The notes beneath the pieces were generated by a model that had not been told where the DNA came from, did not search any database, and was given only the letters and a program-made list of their open reading frames with translations. Of a stretch of 44,569 nucleotides of DNA, positions 5,806 to 11,798 are shown in pieces. How positions within the stretch are numbered: the stretch's first letter is position 1; each line of letters starts with the position of its first letter. This stretch comes from Escherichia phage SECphi4. Where the stretch lies: sequence record MT331608; one strand, written 5' to 3'. Position numbers and translations under genes: made by a program.

Positions 5806-8097
5806 TTACTTCCTGTATCTGTACATAATGTCGCCTTCGGCGGCAAGGGGGAAGCCTTTCGCCCAAATAGGCAGGTCGCACATCAGCGCGCAAAGCTCCT
5901 CGGTCGTGTAGTCGTCGGTGTCCGGCACTTCTGTGATCAATTCATCATGCACCGATAGAACGATTTCATAGCCCGCAGCTTCAACGCCAGGCATGGACCA
6001 TGCGAGAATATCGCGGCACAACGCCTGTACGATGTTCTCCGTCAGTTTGCCGCCGTAGGTGTACTGGAACCCCCACTGGCGCGTCGTATGATTCTCGCCC
6101 TGATATTTAATGCGTGTGCTGGTGCGCTTCTTGCCGGTGTCCTCGTCAATCTCTGTCGTGACAGACAGCGCGATGCCGGGGTAGCTCATGATGCGCCCCG
6201 ACGGCAACTCAATTTTCAACCACCACCCAGCGGCGTTCGGGTCGTCGCGCTCCTCGTCAAAGGTTGGGTCGTGCTTCGCCTTCGTACGGACAATCTTGAG
6301 CGCTTTTCTACCGTCCGGGCGAACGTTCGCGCCAGCCCAGTATGCTTTACCCGGATTGCGGATTGCACACAACACCGCGTCCTCAAGCTCGGCCCAAAAG
6401 GCTACCGTCTTCGGGTGAGCCTCACGCCACATACGTTTGATTGCGTCACAAGTAAGCCATACGTTTTTCGGCAGTATGTATGTTGGGCGCTCGTCCTTCT
6501 TGCCCGGCTTCGGCGGGCGCTTCGCTTCGTTAATGCGAGCGTACTCATAACCACGTTTCGCCGCCGCCCAAATGTGATCGGGGAATGTGCCCTTCATCAC
6601 GTCTGCCATAGTGTAAAGGTCAAGGCCCAGGTTTTTAGCGAACTGCAAAAACGCGGCAACGCCGCCACCATAGCCCAGTCCCAATTCGCACGCCTTACCA
6701 ATCTGGCGTAAGTCCTTGCGGTTGGCTTTAATGTAATCCGGGTCAAGGCCGAACATCTTACCGGCAGTCTCGCAATAGATATCGCGACCGGCCTTAAAGA
6801 CCATTAACGCTGTTTTCTCGCCAGCGATCCAGGCAAGGCCGCGCCCTTCCACGTTGGAGTAGTCAGCTACGACAAACTTCTTGCCCTTTGCAGGGATGAT
6901 GCACCCGCGAACGGTAGAGGCGGTCAGCTTCGATATGTCATACGCCCAGTGCGCTGTCCCACGTAACAGGGAGTTGATGCCGTTGGTGAGCATGTGCGAC
7001 CTGACCCAAAAAGCGACGTCGCTCTCGCCTTCGCGGCGCTTAATCTTCCCTTCGTTGTCGTCGCTGTACTCGCCACGCGCTAGGTTTTGAGGTTGGAAGC
7101 CTTTACCGGCCCAGCGTAGCGTGCGCTTTGCCCCACCATACTGAAGACAACCCCGGCGGCGACCATCGGCAGACAAGCCATTGACGAGCGGATTGTATTT
7201 AGTCGATGCCGTTGATGACGCCCCGAGGCGCATTTCGATAAGCGCTTTGCCCTCGTCCGGGAAGTCTGGGTCTTCCAGTAGGTCGTTTAGCGTGGATTTC
7301 TGCGCGTTGTGTATTGTGAATGCTGGCGCAATATCACGCAGGATTGGCAGGAAGTCATTGCCGGTCAGCTTACCGCCAAATCGCTCCCAGGCTTCTTCCT
7401 TCAATTCTTCCTTATGCGCCTGCACCGCTCTGATCGCGGCGTTAGCCAGGTCAACGTCCACATAGAAGCCGCGGTCGTTAATCAACTGGTCTATAAGCAG
7501 GATTTCATCTTCCTTCGGAGTATTGCCCCAGTCCGGTATGCGCCAGTAGACTTCACGCATTGCGATAATATCCAGCGCGGCATAGCGCAGAAATTTGGCC
7601 CACTCTTCTGGGTGAGTCTCGCGAGTGTAGCGGCGGATTTTGTAGGTCTTAGGGGTAGGCTTACAGAACCGTTTGATCAGCGCCTTGCCCGCCTTATCCT
7701 TCGCATGCTCCGCGTCAACGCCCAGCACCTGGCATTGCATATCGAGGCTTCCGGGCAGCGCGTGGCGAAAGGCCATAATCATGGTATCTTCGATCTGGCA
7801 CACTGGCAGGTCAATGCCCCACTTCTCGCGAATGACCAGGCGGTCAAACAGAAGGCCGTTAGCCATCACGATTTTTGCTTTCTTGCGGGATACCTGGCGG
7901 AGCGCCTTGCGCAGTTCACGCGGCATTGTGGGGGATTCAGTGCAATCCCATGTCTGCACGCGGCCCTCGTCGATGGCGTAGGTGCAAATCATAATCTCGG
8001 TTGATGGGTGTTCTGCGTAGGCGTAAGCGCCGACTTTCTTCAGGTCCACATCGCTAAACGTCTCGGTGTCGAGAAACAGGCGTTCGAAGTATTTCAT
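5806..8097 (-). CDS. DNA polymerase I (family A) with N-terminal 3'-5' exonuclease domain
   Basis: 763 aa; Exo I motif FLDTET at the N-terminus; polymerase motif C LSVHDE near the C-terminus. Confidence 0.9.
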   Translation of the reverse strand: MKYFERLFLDTETFSDVDLKKVGAYAYAEHPSTEIMICTYAIDEGRVQTWDCTESPTMPRELRKALRQVSRKKAKIVMANGLLFDRLVIREKWGIDLPVCQIEDTMIMAFRHALPGSLDMQCQVLGVDAEHAKDKAGKALIKRFCKPTPKTYKIRRYTRETHPEEWAKFLRYAALDIIAMREVYWRIPDWGNTPKEDEILLIDQLINDRGFYVDVDLANAAIRAVQAHKEELKEEAWERFGGKLTGNDFLPILRDIAPAFTIHNAQKSTLNDLLEDPDFPDEGKALIEMRLGASSTASTKYNPLVNGLSADGRRRGCLQYGGAKRTLRWAGKGFQPQNLARGEYSDDNEGKIKRREGESDVAFWVRSHMLTNGINSLLRGTAHWAYDISKLTASTVRGCIIPAKGKKFVVADYSNVEGRGLAWIAGEKTALMVFKAGRDIYCETAGKMFGLDPDYIKANRKDLRQIGKACELGLGYGGGVAAFLQFAKNLGLDLYTMADVMKGTFPDHIWAAAKRGYEYARINEAKRPPKPGKKDERPTYILPKNVWLTCDAIKRMWREAHPKTVAFWAELEDAVLCAIRNPGKAYWAGANVRPDGRKALKIVRTKAKHDPTFDEERDDPNAAGWWLKIELPSGRIMSYPGIALSVTTEIDEDTGKKRTSTRIKYQGENHTTRQWGFQYTYGGKLTENIVQALCRDILAWSMPGVEAAGYEIVLSVHDELITEVPDTDDYTTEELCALMCDLPIWAKGFPLAAEGDIMYRYRK

Positions 8098-8264
8098 TGC
8101 TTTATCCTCACTACGGCGTCAGCGCTGCCGATCAGGGAGAAGATGCCGTCTGACAGGGCAATCTCTTCGCCGTTGTTGCGAATCTCGGCAACTGTGAAAT
8201 ATTCCCCCAGTAGCTTAGACCATACTTTCATCCCGACTTTTACTTCGCTGGCTTTAATACGCAT
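8094..8264 (-). CDS. Small hypothetical protein
   Basis: 56-aa ORF whose stop overlaps the polymerase start (ATGA). Confidence 0.35.
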   Translation of the reverse strand: MRIKASEVKVGMKVWSKLLGEYFTVAEIRNNGEEIALSDGIFSLIGSADAVVRIKQ

Positions 8265-8276
8265 TTTTCATTGTCC

Positions 8277-8304
8277 TATTAAAAAGCCCGCATTAAGCGG
8301 GCTT
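8277..8304 (-). terminator. Rho-independent terminator downstream of the SSB gene
   Basis: 8-bp GC-rich stem AAGCCCGC/GCGGGCTT with 5-nt loop followed by a U run on the minus strand. Confidence 0.55.
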
Positions 8305-8322
8305 GAATAGTGGGCTTTGCCC

Positions 8323-9048
8323 TTAACGGCGGCGACGTTTACGAGGCTTTTCATCTTCGTCATCGTCTTCGTCATCGTCGCGGCGCTTGGATTTTTTGGA
8401 CTTGCGCGGTTTGTCGTCTTCGTCATCGTCATCACGACGTTTTGACTTCTTAGACTTGCGCGGTGCTTCGTCTTCGTCATCGTCGCCCAGGTCTTCGTCG
8501 GAACATGAAGACCCGCCACCTCCGAAGGCTTCGCCGTCTTCACGGAATCGCAGACCCAGCAAGCCAGCCCCGAGACCCTTGCCGTTGGTATTGTTCCATG
8601 CCCAAATATCAAGGGACACGTTGCAATAACAACCGGAGTAGATCTCCTGGCCTTCAATCTCGTCGCCGTCGATGGTCAGACCTTGTTCAGTCTGCTTCTC
8701 GCCGAGTGACGTTTGAATGATTGGCTGTTTGAACGATTTGGCGTTGATGTACAACATGCCTTCGAATTCTTCGGTTACTTCGTCGCGCTCGTCACCGTCG
8801 CGCACTGCGCATTCCTTAGAATCCTGGGCGTAGTGGCGGTCCATCCACTTATCGGCATTCTTCTCGGATTTCAGCTTGTCGGTGAGCACTGCGCGCGCTG
8901 CCGCTTCCACTTTGTCCACCTGCGGATCTTCTTTATCAAGAAGAATCACGGCGCGGTATGCCGGTTTTTGTCCATCCTGTTTCGGGGTATCACGTTCCCA
9001 GATTTTCAGGAAGCATACGCGCACTTTTTTCAGGTTGACTTTAGCCAT
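8323..9048 (-). CDS. Single-stranded DNA-binding protein (DUF2815 / T7 gp2.5-like) with mixed-charge repeat tail
   Basis: MAKVNLKKVRV N-terminus and glycine-rich core typical of DUF2815; C-terminal tandem PRKSKKSKRRDDD(D)EDD repeats. Confidence 0.7.
   Translation of the reverse strand: MAKVNLKKVRVCFLKIWERDTPKQDGQKPAYRAVILLDKEDPQVDKVEAAARAVLTDKLKSEKNADKWMDRHYAQDSKECAVRDGDERDEVTEEFEGMLYINAKSFKQPIIQTSLGEKQTEQGLTIDGDEIEGQEIYSGCYCNVSLDIWAWNNTNGKGLGAGLLGLRFREDGEAFGGGGSSCSDEDLGDDDEDEAPRKSKKSKRRDDDDEDDKPRKSKKSKRRDDDEDDDEDEKPRKRRRR
8326..8490. repeat. Imperfect tandem DNA repeat (about 57-bp unit) encoding the SSB C-terminal repeats
   Basis: Repeated ...gacttgcgcgg...cgtcttcgtcatcgtc... units visible in the sequence. 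Confidence 0.7.
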
Positions 9049-9138
9049 TTTCCAATTCCTCATTTTCACATTTATCGGGGTTATTGGAAGCCACCCCGTT
9101 CGGCTTGGTTGCTAATTTACTTGGTTGCGCCGGAGCGG

Positions 9139-9381
9139 TCAAGCATTTTCATTAAAAAGATTTCTGGTAACGTAGTTGGTCGCGTTCTCGATCCAGCTTA
9201 ACGGCGGTCGGTCGATGTTCTTCTCCACCAAGCCGACGGCAGCGTCGTTATAGCCGTCATCCAGCCAGCGGGTCGGATGTCGAATCATCCAGGCCACCAT
9301 TAATACGCACTGCACACAATGCAGGATAAAGCCCAGCGCGCCGATAACAAACATCAATAAGATTGCGAACACTTTATTCAT
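9139..9381 (-). CDS. Small membrane protein
   Basis: 80-aa ORF with hydrophobic N-terminal helices; GAGGA SD. Confidence 0.5.
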   Translation of the reverse strand: MNKVFAILLMFVIGALGFILHCVQCVLMVAWMIRHPTRWLDDGYNDAAVGLVEKNIDRPPLSWIENATNYVTRNLFNENA

Positions 9382-10792
9382 TGCTTAAGTCCTCGTCAGT
9401 AGCTTCAGACCACGCAGGGCGCGGGTCGTCGATTGGTGCTAATGCCGGTTTAGCCGGTGCGCGCGTGATTTTATCACACAGCTTCGCCCATACTTTCGGT
9501 TTCTCGTCCTTCAGTACCTTCTCGGCATCCGTAGGACTGAGCAATGTTTCTTTGTACATCACATCGCGCTTGATCCGGGCCTTCGTGAAGATTTCAATCA
9601 CTTCGCTCTCGTCCGCCCACTTGCGATTCCCTTCCTTACCGGCAACCATCTTGAGGCCCAGCGATTCGCCATCGCCTGCCATTACGGCCTTGAATACAGC
9701 GGACTCGATAGCCTTGATGTGCTGGCGCATTGCGTCAAGACCTTCATATGCCTTGCGCAGTTCCGCGGAGGTCATAGCGCCTGGTGCCGCTTCTTTCTTG
9801 CCACGCTTCGCACGTCGTGCCGCTTTGCGGGCTTTGCGGTCGTGATTGGCGCATTCTTCCTCTGTCGCAATACTCACGTCGTCGCCCAGGTCTTCGTCTG
9901 TTGCCGTTGGTGGGGTCATCGTGTCGATTGCGGCCTTAGCGCGGGCGCTACACTGATCCGCAAATCTGCACCACTGACACGCATCAACGCTCGGTCGGAA
10001 GTCGGCACTGGTGAGTCCCTTTTTGCCGCGGGCGTACGCTTCCCGGGCGGCGATAGCACGCTTGGACGCAAACTTCGCGAATATCTCCAGGGCTTCTACC
10101 GAAATATCCCACTCCGACGCCCCGCCGCAATACGGCTGGAAGATAACCAGGCGCACGGTCGTAATGTCGTACATGGTTTTCAGCTTGCGCAGCAGGCCCA
10201 GCGCATACAACATAAGCTGTTTGTTTTCTTTCGCCTCGACCTTATGCCGCCCCGTCTTCAGGTCGCCAACAATCAGCATGTACGTGCCGTCGGTCTTCTT
10301 CATGACCATGACCATATCTGCAGTTCCGAACGTCTTAACCCGGTTGCCGTCGATCTCGAAGCCAGAGTGTAGGACGCGGGTGAGATCGGCGCGCATCTCA
10401 AGCTGAACAAACTCCGCCACTTCGAGGAGCGGTCGCCAGTGGTCGATGTACGCGTCGCACTGTTTCACCATATCGTCATTGACCAGTACGCCGCCTTTCG
10501 GTGCTTTCGGGTGTGCCTTTACCGGCCCCTTACCTTCGTTCTCGACGTAGCACCCTTTGTACGTCTTCGCGGTTATCAGCTTCTCCCCGGCAATGATGCG
10601 GTTGAGCACGACTTCAGATACGGTGTGCATACTAGTACCGTTAATCGCCGCTTGCCCGGATTCGTTCGGGATACCTTGTTCTACCACCAGGGCGGCAGGG
10701 CAACCCATCCATTTTTTAGCACCGGATGGGCCGAGTAATGAATGCTCCGTGTTGCTACCGGATTGCGTTTTACGTTTTGGTTTAATCGCCAT
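9374..10792 (-). CDS. DUF2800-type PD-(D/E)XK (Cas4-like) nuclease
   Basis: N-terminal HSLLGPSGAKKWMGCP signature; 472 aa; adjacent to DUF2815 SSB and the polymerase. Confidence 0.7.
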   Translation of the reverse strand: MAIKPKRKTQSGSNTEHSLLGPSGAKKWMGCPAALVVEQGIPNESGQAAINGTSMHTVSEVVLNRIIAGEKLITAKTYKGCYVENEGKGPVKAHPKAPKGGVLVNDDMVKQCDAYIDHWRPLLEVAEFVQLEMRADLTRVLHSGFEIDGNRVKTFGTADMVMVMKKTDGTYMLIVGDLKTGRHKVEAKENKQLMLYALGLLRKLKTMYDITTVRLVIFQPYCGGASEWDISVEALEIFAKFASKRAIAAREAYARGKKGLTSADFRPSVDACQWCRFADQCSARAKAAIDTMTPPTATDEDLGDDVSIATEEECANHDRKARKAARRAKRGKKEAAPGAMTSAELRKAYEGLDAMRQHIKAIESAVFKAVMAGDGESLGLKMVAGKEGNRKWADESEVIEIFTKARIKRDVMYKETLLSPTDAEKVLKDEKPKVWAKLCDKITRAPAKPALAPIDDPRPAWSEATDEDLSNE

Positions 10793-11279: not shown

Positions 11280-11798
11280 TTAGTCTTCCAGTTCGAAATA
11301 GGTTTCGACGATTTCTTTTAACTCTGTGTGGAAGTCTTCGACGTCGTCGTCTTCCAGCTTGGCGATTGATTTGATCTCGAACGATTCCAGCAGGTCGTCG
11401 AATTCGTCGTTCGCGTCGTCGTCGTCACCACCAGCGATAATAGCGGCGTACTGTTTGATCTCGTCGCGCATCTCTGCCAGCGGGTCGGCATCTTTCTTGC
11501 CTTTGCCTTTCGCCGGAGCTTTTTTGGTTTTCGCCGGTTTTTCGTCTTCGGCTTCTTCATCGTCGTCATCTTCTACGACTTCTTTTTTGGCCTTACCTTT
11601 AGCCGGTGCTTTTTTGGTTTTCGCCGGTGCTTCGTCTTCGGTTTCATCGTCGTCATCTTCTACGACTTCTTTCTTAGCCTTAGACGGCTTCTTGTCTTCC
11701 TGCTTACCCACGGCAGCGCCAACGGTTTCATAATGCTTAGCGATGGTTTCCAGTGCTACTACGCCGCGAGTAATCAGGTTTACGATTTGTTCAAACAT
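11280..11798 (-). CDS. Mixed-charge tandem-repeat protein; first gene of the minus-strand arm
   Basis: ATG at 11796..11798 with GGAGA SD; 173 aa with two roughly 30-aa repeats KKEVVEDDDDE..PAKTKKAPAKGK and an acidic C-terminus. Confidence 0.6.
   Translation of the reverse strand: MFEQIVNLITRGVVALETIAKHYETVGAAVGKQEDKKPSKAKKEVVEDDDDETEDEAPAKTKKAPAKGKAKKEVVEDDDDEEAEDEKPAKTKKAPAKGKGKKDADPLAEMRDEIKQYAAIIAGGDDDDANDEFDDLLESFEIKSIAKLEDDDVEDFHTELKEIVETYFELED
11490..11690. repeat. Tandem 90-bp DNA repeat (2 copies) inside the acidic protein gene
   Basis: Near-identical gccgg(a/t)gcttttttggttttcgccgg...catcgtcgtcatcttctacgacttc units at about 11512 and 11602. Confidence 0.8.

Follow-up and report, generated by a model that had tools for sequence, protein, structure and literature searches.

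In textbook gp2.5-type proteins that bind single-stranded DNA (SSBs), an acidic C-terminal tail that ends in an aromatic residue both covers the DNA-binding groove and brings in polymerase and helicase. According to summaries in papers that include PMC13402713, the tail of T7 gp2.5 binds both polymerase and helicase, and a preprint summary states that the interaction with T7 polymerase is lost when the C-terminal Phe of this tail is removed. Enc34 ORF6 (5ODJ, 5ODK and 5ODL), the type member of Pfam family PF10991, has a tail of 29 residues, 16 of them D or E, which ends in ..WDEDEDEV and is devoid of basic blocks and repeats; without this tail the protein binds dsDNA, and the crystal structure places the tail in an adjacent molecule's groove (PMC5686142). 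The disordered C-terminal tail of another phage SSB, PRD1 P12, is not solely inhibitory, as it raises ssDNA binding and cooperativity (PMC11886824). The SSB of Escherichia phage SECphi4 is, like T7 gp2.5, a trigger of Retron-Eco8, which its expression activates, and earlier work cited in PMC13402713 describes binding of the retron msdDNA by this protein; its flexible C-terminal residues were left out of the published SECphi4 SSB work.

The window analysed here is the whole 44,569-nt stretch of SECphi4 DNA in record MT331608, in which the SSB carries a long tail of alternating acidic and basic blocks. Sequence comparison confirms that this tail exists, that selection conserves it, that its copy number varies, and that it is typical of a phage lineage, not unique to SECphi4.

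The SSB gene and the layout of its tail

The features of the gene and its surroundings are as follows.

8323..9048, minus strand: SSB gene of the Enc34/T7 gp2.5 type (Pfam, PHROG, PDB and Foldseek matches)
9056..9061, minus strand: Shine-Dalgarno-like GAGGAA, 7 nt 5' of the ATG at 9048 (read from the sequence)
8512..9048, minus strand: OB-fold core, residues 1-179, with an FGGGG hinge at its end (AF2 and fold matches)
8467..8511, minus strand: proximal segment SSCSDEDLGDDDEDE, residues 180-194 (tail comparison)
8413..8466, minus strand: repeat unit A, APRKSKKSKRR + DDDDEDD = APRKSKKSKRRDDDDEDD, residues 195-212 (TRF and unit comparison)
8350..8412, minus strand: repeat unit B, KPRKSKKSKRR + DDDEDDDEDE = KPRKSKKSKRRDDDEDDDEDE, residues 213-233 (TRF and unit comparison)
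8326..8349, minus strand: partial unit C, terminal basic block KPRKRRRR, residues 234-241 (tail DNA alignment)
8284..8304, minus strand: intrinsic-terminator-like hairpin with stems at 8284-8291 and 8297-8304, a loop at 8292-8296 and a U run after it

The open reading frame as called spans 8323..9069 on the minus strand; the real start of the SSB is the ATG at 9048, not the 5' edge at 9069, and the published SECphi4 annotation agrees. All 241 residues are identical to those of the published SECphi4 SSB, and the mutations that Table S2 of that work lists at 8883 and 8595 agree in position with the gene in the window (10.1101/2022.08.27.505566). The assignment to the DUF2815-type SSBs made in the initial annotation is borne out by matches to Pfam PF10991 (Enc34_ssDNA-bd, formerly DUF2815; E=1.2e-31, residues 10-200, 110.2 bits against a cut-off of 26) and to PHROG 112, 'Gp2.5-like ssDNA binding protein' (E=8e-56). 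Sequence matches in the PDB comprise 4KLK, 4JG2 and 5ODJ, while Foldseek with the SSB model retrieves 5ODL (E=4e-12, TM 0.76), 4KLK (E=2e-12) and T7 gp2.5 (1JE5, E=1.4e-6); AF2 pLDDT is 94-99 in the core, to approximately residue 170. By its core sequence, the protein is a DUF2815/Enc34 family member, and its tail is a variant one.

With T7 gp2.5 the SECphi4 protein shares the OB-fold class and a gene position next to those of a family A polymerase and an exonuclease, but their identity is only about 12-13 %, and the T7 tail is strongly acidic with one small basic patch (..SAKASKPRDEES..), whereas that of SECphi4 is a polyampholyte with an Arg-rich tip. Enc34 ORF6 is of the same family and fold, and in both proteins the OB core is followed by an unstructured C-terminal segment that begins with an acidic stretch. 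The SECphi4 tail, however, is 62 residues long, nearly charge-balanced and repetitive, and it terminates in RRRR instead of an acidic/hydrophobic end.

The tail is 77 % charged, with 26 acidic and 22 basic residues and a net charge of -4, and it consists of three parts, namely the proximal acidic DEDLGDDDEDE, internal units of x-Pro-basic plus acidic residues, and the Arg-rich C-terminus PRKRRRR. Tandem Repeats Finder (TRF) reports a repeat at 8363-8484 (period 54, 2.3 copies, 81 % matches, score 151), and the 13-residue peptide PRKSKKSKRRDDD is identical in units A and B; the earlier description of 2.5 copies of roughly 57 bp is fair, since the units measure 54, 63 and 24 nt. Charge segregation in the 62 residues lies 8.7 sd above that of residue shuffles (reached in 0 of 2000; kappa approximately 0.6). 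In the AF2 model, residues 175-241 are coil with no secondary structure (pLDDT 46-73), and there is a Pro in every unit, so that the tail is best described as a 'blocky polyampholyte' that is predicted to be disordered. ER/K single alpha-helices are helical and rich in Glu, Lys and Arg, whereas this tail is coil in the model, Asp-rich and not Glu-rich, with Pro at each acid-to-basic junction. Neither the bacterial SSB-type acidic tip (..DDDIPF, with a terminal hydrophobic residue) nor a short, strongly acidic tail with a hydrophobic or aromatic end was found in the SECphi4 SSB, which closes with KPRKRRRR.

The proximal acidic segment appears to correspond to the ancestral tail motif of the family, D-(D/E)-F-(E/D)-D-L-(G/S)-D, which follows directly on the Gly hinge. 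In the window it reads S-D-E-D-L-G-D-D-D, from which the Phe of D-(D/E)-F-(E/D)-D-L is absent, and it is invariant or nearly so among 18 Dhillonvirus relatives. Of 125 acidic tails, 49 show the motif in a loose form, and 54 of 124 mixed tails have a DDL-type version of it.

The SSB stop codon is followed 18 nt further 3' by the terminator-like hairpin, which lies upstream of a 56-aa gene and the DNA polymerase gene (5806..8097). The folding energy of the hairpin is -24.6 kcal/mol (z = -4.6); a consensus scan did not flag it. Published SECphi4 escape mutations fall at 8292-8296, 8304 and 8305.

Variation, selection and distribution of the tail

The number of repeats had been expected to vary between isolates, and it does: 19 close relatives display six structural alleles with 2-4 basic blocks, and 46 GenBank records fall into 19 length classes. 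All complete relatives (n=18) are in frame, and in 44 of the 46 GenBank spans the length difference from the window is divisible by 3. The frameshifted records look like sequencing errors, because their breaks differ in position and they come from a single submission series. The allele type of the window (two PRKSKKSKRR blocks plus a terminal PRKRRRR) is also found in the independent isolates TheodorHerzl and BF9; owing to this recurrence and to the identity with the published sequence, the assembly artefact against which the initial annotation had cautioned is excluded, as far as sequence comparison goes. Alleles with 2-4 basic blocks arise by in-frame recombination between units. The terminal KPRKRRRR of the window is a hybrid, combining block 3 (KPRKRRKPR) and block 4 (APRKRRRR) of the common four-block allele; in the DNA alignment of 15 tails, it has CCT and the Lys codons as in block 3 and CGCCGCCGTTAA as in block 4, with the joint inside the shared CGTAAACGTCG and an in-frame deletion of 60 nt.

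The further suggestion that the repeat is a ready source of variation holds as regards unit number, but the repeat is not labile. Units A and B are 72 % identical in nucleotides (15 of 54 nt differ), with 11 synonymous and three non-synonymous codon differences. Treated as paralogues in 13 genomes, they give pS 0.73 and pN 0.089, and each of them is orthologous between phages, which rules out a recently slipped, labile repeat. As their synonymous sites are saturated while their peptides are nearly identical, recent slippage, an element at the DNA level and an artefact are all ruled out. A slippage-prone, phase-variable repeat of the contingency type was likewise not recognized, the units being only 72 % identical in DNA and the variants staying in frame. 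With a pN/pS of 0.099, against 0.059 for the core, the tail is under purifying selection, and its units are old duplicates maintained as peptide. The tail pS (0.32) is not below that of the core (0.25), and synonymous sites are therefore free of extra constraint.

In the family as a whole, tail types were surveyed by an exhaustive, unbiased whole-library search with the SSB core only, from which 149 representatives were compared; at E<=1e-3 the family numbers 1925 representatives. The departure from the short acidic tail expected of gp2.5-like SSBs was upheld: 125 of the 149 (84 %) have acidic-only tails, with a median length of 22 aa, and 79 of these 125 finish in an acid-plus-hydrophobic end. 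Tails of mixed charge are characteristic of the Dhillonvirus/Guernseyvirinae lineage and of a second clade, and turn up in scattered cases besides; they are clustered on the core tree (13 parsimony changes versus approximately 82 in shuffles), a neighbour-joining tree of 151 core columns that is too rough to separate one ancient gain with losses from several gains. One member of the second clade was inspected (P0089) and proved to be a different element that carries an integrase. Since most tails in the family are short and acidic, and mixed ones mark this restricted set, the mixed-charge tail is derived, but not peculiar to SECphi4. The possibility that homologous SSBs universally carry the same tail thus does not hold across the whole family, but it does within the lineage, where the mixed-charge tail is the rule in Dhillonvirus and a single unit occurs in Jerseyvirus and Bas74. 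The SSBs of Salmonella Jerseyvirus SETP13 and E. coli phage Bas74 are true orthologues from the same replication module; they are 208 aa long, lack internal repetition and show the tail grammar of SECphi4 just once (..DDLEDDEDETPRRERRRNR and ..DLEDDEEDEAPRRERRRR), the unit having been reiterated in the lineage of SECphi4. The SSB tail of Serratia phage Tsm2 has three units.

A 'universal' tail had been suggested by a search with the full protein, in which 109 of 114 usable hits were mixed-charge, and this picture was reversed by the core-only search. The full-protein result is a sampling artefact that stems from low-complexity words shared in a word-indexed database. This carries a practical warning, because full-protein seeds let a low-complexity tail dominate the search and misrepresent the family.

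In a large protein collection, mixed-charge tails form more than 100 clusters at 90 % identity. The 124 mixed tails contain 289 acid-to-basic junctions, 263 of which have Pro within three residues; at basic-to-acid junctions this is rare, and the directional acid-xP-basic grammar is kept in more than 100 divergent proteins. The median net charge is -8 in acidic-only tails (22 aa) and -9 in mixed tails (63 aa), the two classes not being phylogenetically independent; the added units are therefore charge-balanced. In distant mixed-tail members the repeats are followed by a retained acidic-hydrophobic tip (..DDDDEF, ..DDDVA) and thus act there as a linker. Some distant DUF2815 proteins end in ..DDIPF or ..DDIPY (P0219, P0223 and P0195).

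The parallel with a second early protein

The initial annotation had likened the SSB tail to repeats in a further gene.

11280..11798, minus strand: p2, 172 aa, PHROG 3127, with an N-terminal helix, a disordered mixed-charge linker and an acidic C-terminal three-helix bundle (AF2)

The p2 linker contains 2.2 copies of a 30-aa unit (TRF 11491-11682, period 90, 86 % matches). The parallel is real and sharper than composition, as it extends to the junction EDE(A/K)P-x-K-(S/T)-KK, which is common to both proteins. Translated in all six frames, the window has five acid-x-Pro-basic junctions, with three in the SSB tail, two in the p2 linker (starting at 11639 and 11549) and none elsewhere, and the local alignment of tail and p2 scores 113 against 79.5 +/- 7 in shuffles that keep the charge pattern (reached in 0 of 1000). 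The notion that the same module occurs in both proteins did not stand in the sense of a transfer: the units measure 18-21 aa in the SSB and 30 aa in p2, the basic blocks are built of R/K/S versus A/K/T/G/P, and only 15 nt of DNA are shared, so that the likeness is one of grammar, not a transferred module. Homologues of p2 are found at the same position in SETP13, Bas74 and Tsm2. Nothing above noise was obtained for p2 in Pfam, PHROG 3127 carries no functional label, and Foldseek with the p2 model gave nothing at E<0.001 against the PDB. Between the lengths of the SSB tail and of p2 there was a weak correlation (Spearman 0.52, p=0.058, n=14, uncorrected for phylogeny), which is not strong enough to serve as evidence.

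Possible function and significance of the tail

The tail may act as an electrostatic interaction and self-association module that replaces the classical acidic-aromatic tip, a reading to which a probability of about 0.45 is assigned. The proximal acidic segment would retain a gp2.5-like role, shielding the DNA-binding groove, conferring a preference for ssDNA over dsDNA and being displaced upon ssDNA binding. The alternating blocks would form a multivalent module, with acidic/basic pairing within the tail and between neighbouring SSBs on ssDNA, and might also pair with charged surfaces on replisome partners, be it the polymerase, the primase-helicase or p2 through its highly acidic C-terminal domain. 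The outcome would be cooperativity, a raised concentration at the fork and recruitment of partners at unchanged net tail charge, and valence and reach, not specificity, would be adjusted by how many units there are. High valence is not essential, given that 2-4 units are tolerated in one genus and a single unit in Jerseyvirus. The AF2 model is of a single chain, and is blind to contacts of the tail with the groove, other tails or partners. A functional precedent for the proposed mechanism is offered by the disordered tail of PRD1 P12, although its OB-like fold and tail sequence are unrelated and alternating charge blocks are not reported for it. Self-association or condensate formation is suggested by analogy with polymer physics and other SSBs. 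In eukaryotic blocky mixed-charge regions, acidic and basic runs alternate and segregation is high, as in the SECphi4 tail, and its likeness to condensate-forming mixed-charge domains is taken as an analogy only. A literature search for mixed-charge or polyampholyte SSB tails in phages returned nothing relevant. Distinctly improbable is the more far-reaching idea that the acid-x-Pro-basic repeats constitute an electrostatic 'zipper' code shared by two or more proteins of the replication module, in the SSB tail and the p2 linker, assembling a replication compartment or an SSB-ssDNA co-condensate with a valence set by unit number, in place of polymerase and helicase recruitment by an acidic-aromatic tip.

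It is conceivable, if on the unlikely side, that the internal units are largely a neutral spacer, that all that matters is a net negative charge together with the proximal acidic segment and the acid-PR(K/R)RRR unit at the terminus, and that the repeats are tolerated products of unequal recombination in GA-rich DNA. Viable isolates indeed tolerate 2-4 blocks, one unit suffices in Jerseyvirus and Bas74, net charge is conserved at any tail length, and SECphi4 (three blocks) and SECphi18 (four blocks) both replicate and are both sensed by Retron-Eco8. Against such neutrality stand a tail pN/pS of 0.10, near that of the core, the identity of 13 of 13 residues between units A and B despite near-saturated synonymous divergence, and the grammar kept across the divergent proteins, a retention of sequence that is not usual in neutral spacers. 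Rather unlikely is the proposal that the basic blocks, (S/A/K)PRKSKKSKRR, are auxiliary nucleic-acid-binding arms, masked by the acidic blocks until the SSB is on DNA, which would speed ssDNA annealing and recombination with the adjacent DUF2800 PD-(D/E)XK exonuclease (9374..10792) instead of making protein contacts. The PHROG 112 annotation as an ssDNA-binding and annealing protein would fit this, as would the DUF2800 nuclease gene directly upstream of the SSB throughout the lineage, the occurrence of SPRKSKK in many relatives and the PAKTKKAPAKGK blocks in the p2 linker; we take the SSB basic blocks to resemble SPKK or histone-H1-type motifs, and the p2 blocks presumably resemble H1-type DNA-binding repeats. 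Each basic block, however, is matched by an acidic one and the tail is net negative, which argues against strong DNA affinity.

An arms race with SSB-sensing defences (Retron-Eco8, ShosTA, Hachiman, DARNA and others) is a very improbable cause of tail variability. Retron-Eco8 does respond to the SECphi4 SSB, and several systems can be escaped through mutations in SSB, but the listed changes lie in the OB core (T56P, N152H, F106V, T21P and F95L) or the promoter (9093), none being in the tail, and deletion of the T7 C-tail is without effect on Retron-Eco8 activation (PMC13402713). The low pN/pS moreover indicates no diversifying selection, and defence-driven diversification was rejected on these grounds. 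A role at the DNA or RNA level (origin iterons as in lambda O, a gene overlapping in the open frame 8268..8657, or programmed frameshifting) is, like an artefact of assembly, scarcely credible. The alternative frame is open through the tail, and some database proteins use it (P0005 and P0008); the units, however, are more conserved as protein than as DNA, and the frameshifted records differ in where they break. Iterons of the lambda O type were not recognized in the repeat, in which differences between units are mostly synonymous and tail pS is not below core pS, and iteron, overlapping frame and programmed frameshift were all rejected.

The textbook tail rule is broken by a whole lineage of common enterobacterial siphophages, comprising Dhillonvirus, Jerseyvirus, Bas74-type coliphages and their relatives. 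Core homologues are present in 847 isolate genomes, of which this lineage appears to make up several hundred; its SSBs end in Arg-rich, charge-balanced block repeats on which selection clearly acts. As the SECphi4 SSB already serves as a model trigger of Retron-Eco8 and ShosTA, clones, escape mutants and assays exist, and the natural one-, two-, three- and four-unit alleles provide a ready-made series, so that the role of the polyampholyte tail is directly testable.

The SSB and its charged tail

By its core, the SSB is a member of the Enc34/T7 gp2.5-type family of ssDNA-binding proteins, while one family hallmark is failed by its tail.

8323..9069, minus strand: SSB open reading frame, with Pfam PF10991 and PHROG 112 matches

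PF10991 (Enc34_ssDNA-bd, formerly DUF2815) matches residues 10–200 of the reading frame (E=1.2e-31), and PHROG 112, 'Gp2.5-like ssDNA binding protein and ssDNA annealing protein', matches it at E=8e-56. Translation is likely to start at the ATG at 9048, which lies 7 nt downstream of GAGGAA and would yield a protein of 241 aa. In an AlphaFold2 model (68 homologues), pLDDT is 94–99 to approximately residue 170, and residues 175–241 are modelled without secondary structure at a pLDDT of 46–73. Structure comparison matched the core to Enc34 ORF6 (5ODL; E=4e-12, TM 0.76), as well as to the DUF2815 structures 4KLK and 4JG2 and to T7 gp2.5 (1JE5, E=1.4e-6). The tail consists of four segments:

Segment 1, directly after the FGGGG hinge: SSCSDEDLGDDDEDE
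Segment 2 (unit A): APRKSKKSKRR-DDDDEDD
Segment 3 (unit B): KPRKSKKSKRR-DDDEDDDEDE
Segment 4, C-terminal end: KPRKRRRR

The initial annotation had described a mixed-charge tandem-repeat tail, and this description proved accurate. Tandem Repeats Finder detected the repeat at 8363-8484 (period 54, 2.3 copies, 81 % matches). Charged residues make up 77 % of the tail (26 acidic and 22 basic, net charge -4), with a charge segregation 8.7 sd above that of shuffles. In a set of 124 mixed-charge tails, proline lies no more than 3 residues from the acid-to-basic junction in 263 of 289 cases, typically as (D/E)n-x-P-(R/K), and is rare at basic-to-acid junctions. Median net charge, with kinship ignored, is practically equal in acidic-only (-8) and mixed tails (-9) despite the approximately threefold length of the latter (medians 22 vs 63 aa), which indicates that the added units are charge-balanced. 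Mixed tails sit on cores with a mean net charge of -4.8, more acidic than the cores of acidic-only tails (+2.2, kinship again ignored). Additionally, PHROG 15004, a separate 'single strand DNA binding protein' family, matches the tail alone (8326..8497, E=3e-4; SSB residues 184-240 against profile positions 301-361 of 421), and mixed-charge tails may thus also occur on an unrelated SSB core.

Distribution, copy number and age of the units

The SSB region is 90–96 % identical to 154 Dhillonvirus records, including TheodorHerzl, BF9, SECphi18, EK99P-1 and HK578, with TheodorHerzl (95.9 %) being the best match to the window among the matches listed in the phage collection, which did not include SECphi4 itself. 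Campylobacter phage A144 (MG065648.1, 35 kb), Sodalis phage SO-1 and one Acinetobacter record are ~93 % identical over this region, and at least some of these host labels look doubtful.

A search of a word-indexed database with the full protein, in which candidates were pre-selected by shared 5-residue words, returned 120 proteins, nearly all with alternating acidic/basic tails; such a search favours mixed tails because the pre-selection lets a low-complexity tail recruit its own kind. When only the core (residues 1-179) served as the query, an exhaustive HMMER scan over 1.84 billion representatives yielded 1925 proteins at E<=1e-3 (193 at E<=1e-10), and tail classes were scored on the best 150 of these 1925, 149 of which were usable. 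Acidic-only tails were found in 125 of the 149 (median 22 aa), in line with the short acidic tail that the initial annotation had expected for gp2.5-like SSBs, and in 79 of the 125 a hydrophobic residue closes the tail after an acidic run (..DDDLI, ..DDIPF, ..EDEFA). Mixed-charge tails were found in 14 (median 47 aa), including the nearest relatives of the window's SSB, and other types in 10. A tail shared by all homologous SSBs, which had been considered at the outset, is therefore not seen family-wide; the tail is typical of a lineage. When the cores were placed on a rough NJ tree, mixed tails fell into a large clade that includes the window, another clade and a few scattered cases (13 parsimony changes vs ~82 with shuffled labels). 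Single-unit tails occur in the 208-aa SSBs of Jerseyvirus SETP13 (..DDLEDDEDETPRRERRRNR) and coliphage Bas74 (..DLEDDEEDEAPRRERRRR), the latter having the same replication module as the window, and the Serratia phage Tsm2 tail has three units. Distant repeat-bearing members keep classical tips (..DDDDEF, ..DDDVA or ..DDDDI), so that their repeats form a linker before the tip, in contrast to the Arg-rich tip found in the lineage of the window. The tail is thus a derived character of its lineage, neither a family-wide feature nor a single-genome quirk.

Several DUF2815 SSBs (P0219, P0223, P0238, P0195, P0196) bear tips such as ..DDIPF, ..AIPF, ..DDIPY or ..DDVPF. Bacterial SSB has the same tip (..DDDIPF), a hint that these phage or prophage SSBs engage the host proteins by which that tip is recognised.

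In the common allele the basic blocks number four, namely xPRKSKKSKRR (B1), KPRKSKKSKRR (B2), KPRKRRKPR (B3) and APRKRRRR (B4), and six structural alleles were distinguished.

Structural alleles in the window and 18 complete relatives
B1-B2-B3-B4: nine phages
B1-B2-B4: TheodorHerzl, BF9
B1-B3-B4: four phages
B1-[B2/B3 hybrid]-B4: present in this set
B1-B4: EP23-like
B1-B2-[B3/B4 hybrid]: window

The last block of the window combines CCT and Lys codons from B3 with CGCCGCCGTTAA from B4, as would be expected from a 60-nt in-frame deletion through the shared CGTAAACGTCG; this hybrid marks an event distinct from the one behind the similar-sized TheodorHerzl allele. Across 46 named GenBank records, the counterpart of this 1-kb stretch measures 950-1070 nt and falls into 19 length classes, the difference from the window being a multiple of 3 in 44. 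The anticipated variation between isolates is thus borne out, and it seems to arise from infrequent recombination among diverged units instead of from rapid slippage.

Of the 54 nt compared between units A and B, 15 differ (11 synonymous codons, 3 residue-changing), and PRKSKKSKRRDDD is identical in the two. The core has a pN/pS of 0.059 and the tail one of 0.099 (18 Dhillonvirus genes), and the paralogous units, compared in 13 genomes, show a pS of 0.73 and a pN of 0.089. In the DNA alignment across phages the units are orthologous, with no sign of concerted evolution, which implies that the duplication predates the genus and that the peptide was kept, not the DNA. Synonymous divergence is not lower in the tail (0.32) than in the core (0.25), which speaks against a DNA/RNA element and against a second gene overlapping the tail in the alternative frame.

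In the window, that alternative frame stays open up to 8268, and some database SSBs of close relatives (P0005, P0008) enter it inside the tail (..MTKMKHRARLRS..), with P0008 representing its own 50%-identity cluster. The GenBank records MZ234008.1 and MZ234014.1 break at different points, and the normal frame continues to ..APRKRRRR; the alternative-frame sequences are probably sequencing errors in low-complexity DNA. The contig IMGVR_UViG_3300045988_003101 ends within the tail repeat, its last codons giving VSYTHLRAHET, which we take to be a reading of the Nextera transposase adapter; adapter sequence seems to have been left at a contig end broken in the repeat.

The early protein p2

11280..11798, minus strand: p2, 172 aa, starts MFEQIV; PHROG 3127 (no function given)
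L021:1209-1736, L022:1164-1664, L023:1322-1777 (genome or contig handles): p2-type proteins

p2 is a conserved protein of the SSB's replication module. Its model begins with a helix, continues through a disordered linker (residues 22-101, pLDDT<50) in which a 30-aa unit is present in 2.2 copies, and ends in an acidic bundle of three helices (pLDDT 82-91). A Foldseek search of the PDB with p2 gave no structural relative. In tblastn, matches appear confined to Dhillonvirus, and the same-position genes of SETP13, Bas74 and Tsm2 encode clear homologues at both ends, also with acid-KP-basic linkers (EEEKPKRKPRKAKVEE). Correctly started homologues span 115-180 aa, the linker being hypervariable (~0 to about 75 aa). 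The invariant D-E-F-D-D-L-L of p2 resembles the D(D/E)F(E/D)DL that starts the acidic tails of most DUF2815 SSBs, a likeness that could be due to chance or to a common docking motif.

One junction, EDE(A/K)P-x-K-(S/T)-KK, is found both in the SSB tail and in the p2 linker. The two align locally with a score of 113; charge-pattern-preserving shuffles score 79.5 +/- 7, none of 1000 reaching 113, and the motif [DE]3-x(0-2)-P-x(0-1)-[KR]..[KR]2 occurs five times in the window's six-frame translation, three times in the SSB tail and twice in p2. However, the units differ in length and basic-block chemistry and share a mere 15 nt of DNA, which points to a common grammar and not a copied module. The initial claim that one module recurs in two early proteins holds for the junction grammar only; overall, its observation was confirmed and its interpretation supported in part.

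Possible roles of the tail

Expression of the SECphi4 SSB activates Retron-Eco8, and escape mutants map to the SSB (10.1101/2022.08.27.505566). Table S2 of that work (Stokar-Avihail et al.) gives an SSB whose 241 residues, tail included, are identical to those of the window; the listed positions of its mutations T56P (8883) and N152H (8595) and of one mutation upstream (9093) all land on the matching sites of the window. Identity extends to what is printed there of the polymerase and 56-aa protein sequences, and the window therefore has the coordinates of SECphi4. Their structural figure leaves out the 'flexible C-terminal residues'; in subsequent structural work on Retron-Eco8, T7 gp2.5 was used and its C-tail proved dispensable for activation (PMC13402713), and no study of the SECphi4 tail was found in the literature on phage SSB tails.

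8284-8305, minus strand: hairpin and U run just 3' of the SSB stop (dG -24.6 kcal/mol, z = -4.6)

This strong hairpin lies between the SSB gene on one side and, on the other, the genes for the 56-aa protein (8094..8264) and the DNA polymerase. Escape mutants within it (8304 +TT, 8305 G>T, loop 8292-8296 ATTAA>TTAAT) share a Table S2 block with DNA-polymerase mutations (10.1101/2022.08.27.505566), which suggests that read-through to the 56-aa and polymerase genes may matter for defence sensing; the system concerned is probably Borvo.

The tail was shown to be selected, charge-patterned and, by prediction, disordered, to keep a counterpart of the ancestral proximal acidic motif and to end in Arg. 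Enc34 ORF6 becomes able to bind dsDNA once its acidic tail is removed, and its crystal structure places the tail in the groove of an adjacent molecule (PMC5686142); the T7 gp2.5 tail binds polymerase and helicase, as summarised in PMC13402713 and a preprint, and PRD1 P12 has a disordered tail by which cooperative binding is promoted (PMC11886824). We propose that the proximal DEDLGDDDEDE would keep a groove-shielding role, while the alternating blocks would add multivalent, charge-neutral electrostatic contacts, be it inside one tail, from tail to tail along ssDNA or to partners that are charged. Such contacts could raise cooperativity or local concentration and recruit partners without the need for an acidic-aromatic tip, the number of units tuning valence. 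The mechanism as a whole is put at slightly below even odds (about 0.45).

There are two main rivals. In one, given about one chance in four, the internal units would act as a largely neutral spacer, a reading weakened by the pN/pS of the tail and the conservation of the paralogous units. In the other, rated somewhat lower, the basic blocks would serve as arms for DNA binding or annealing that are kept masked. Diversification of the tail driven by defence is disfavoured, since every listed escape change lies in the core or promoter, and the 3-block and the 4-block phage are both sensed.

The SECphi4 SSB is thus an ordinary member of a known family with a non-canonical, lineage-typical and apparently unstudied tail, the value of which lies mainly in its direct testability in an established model phage.
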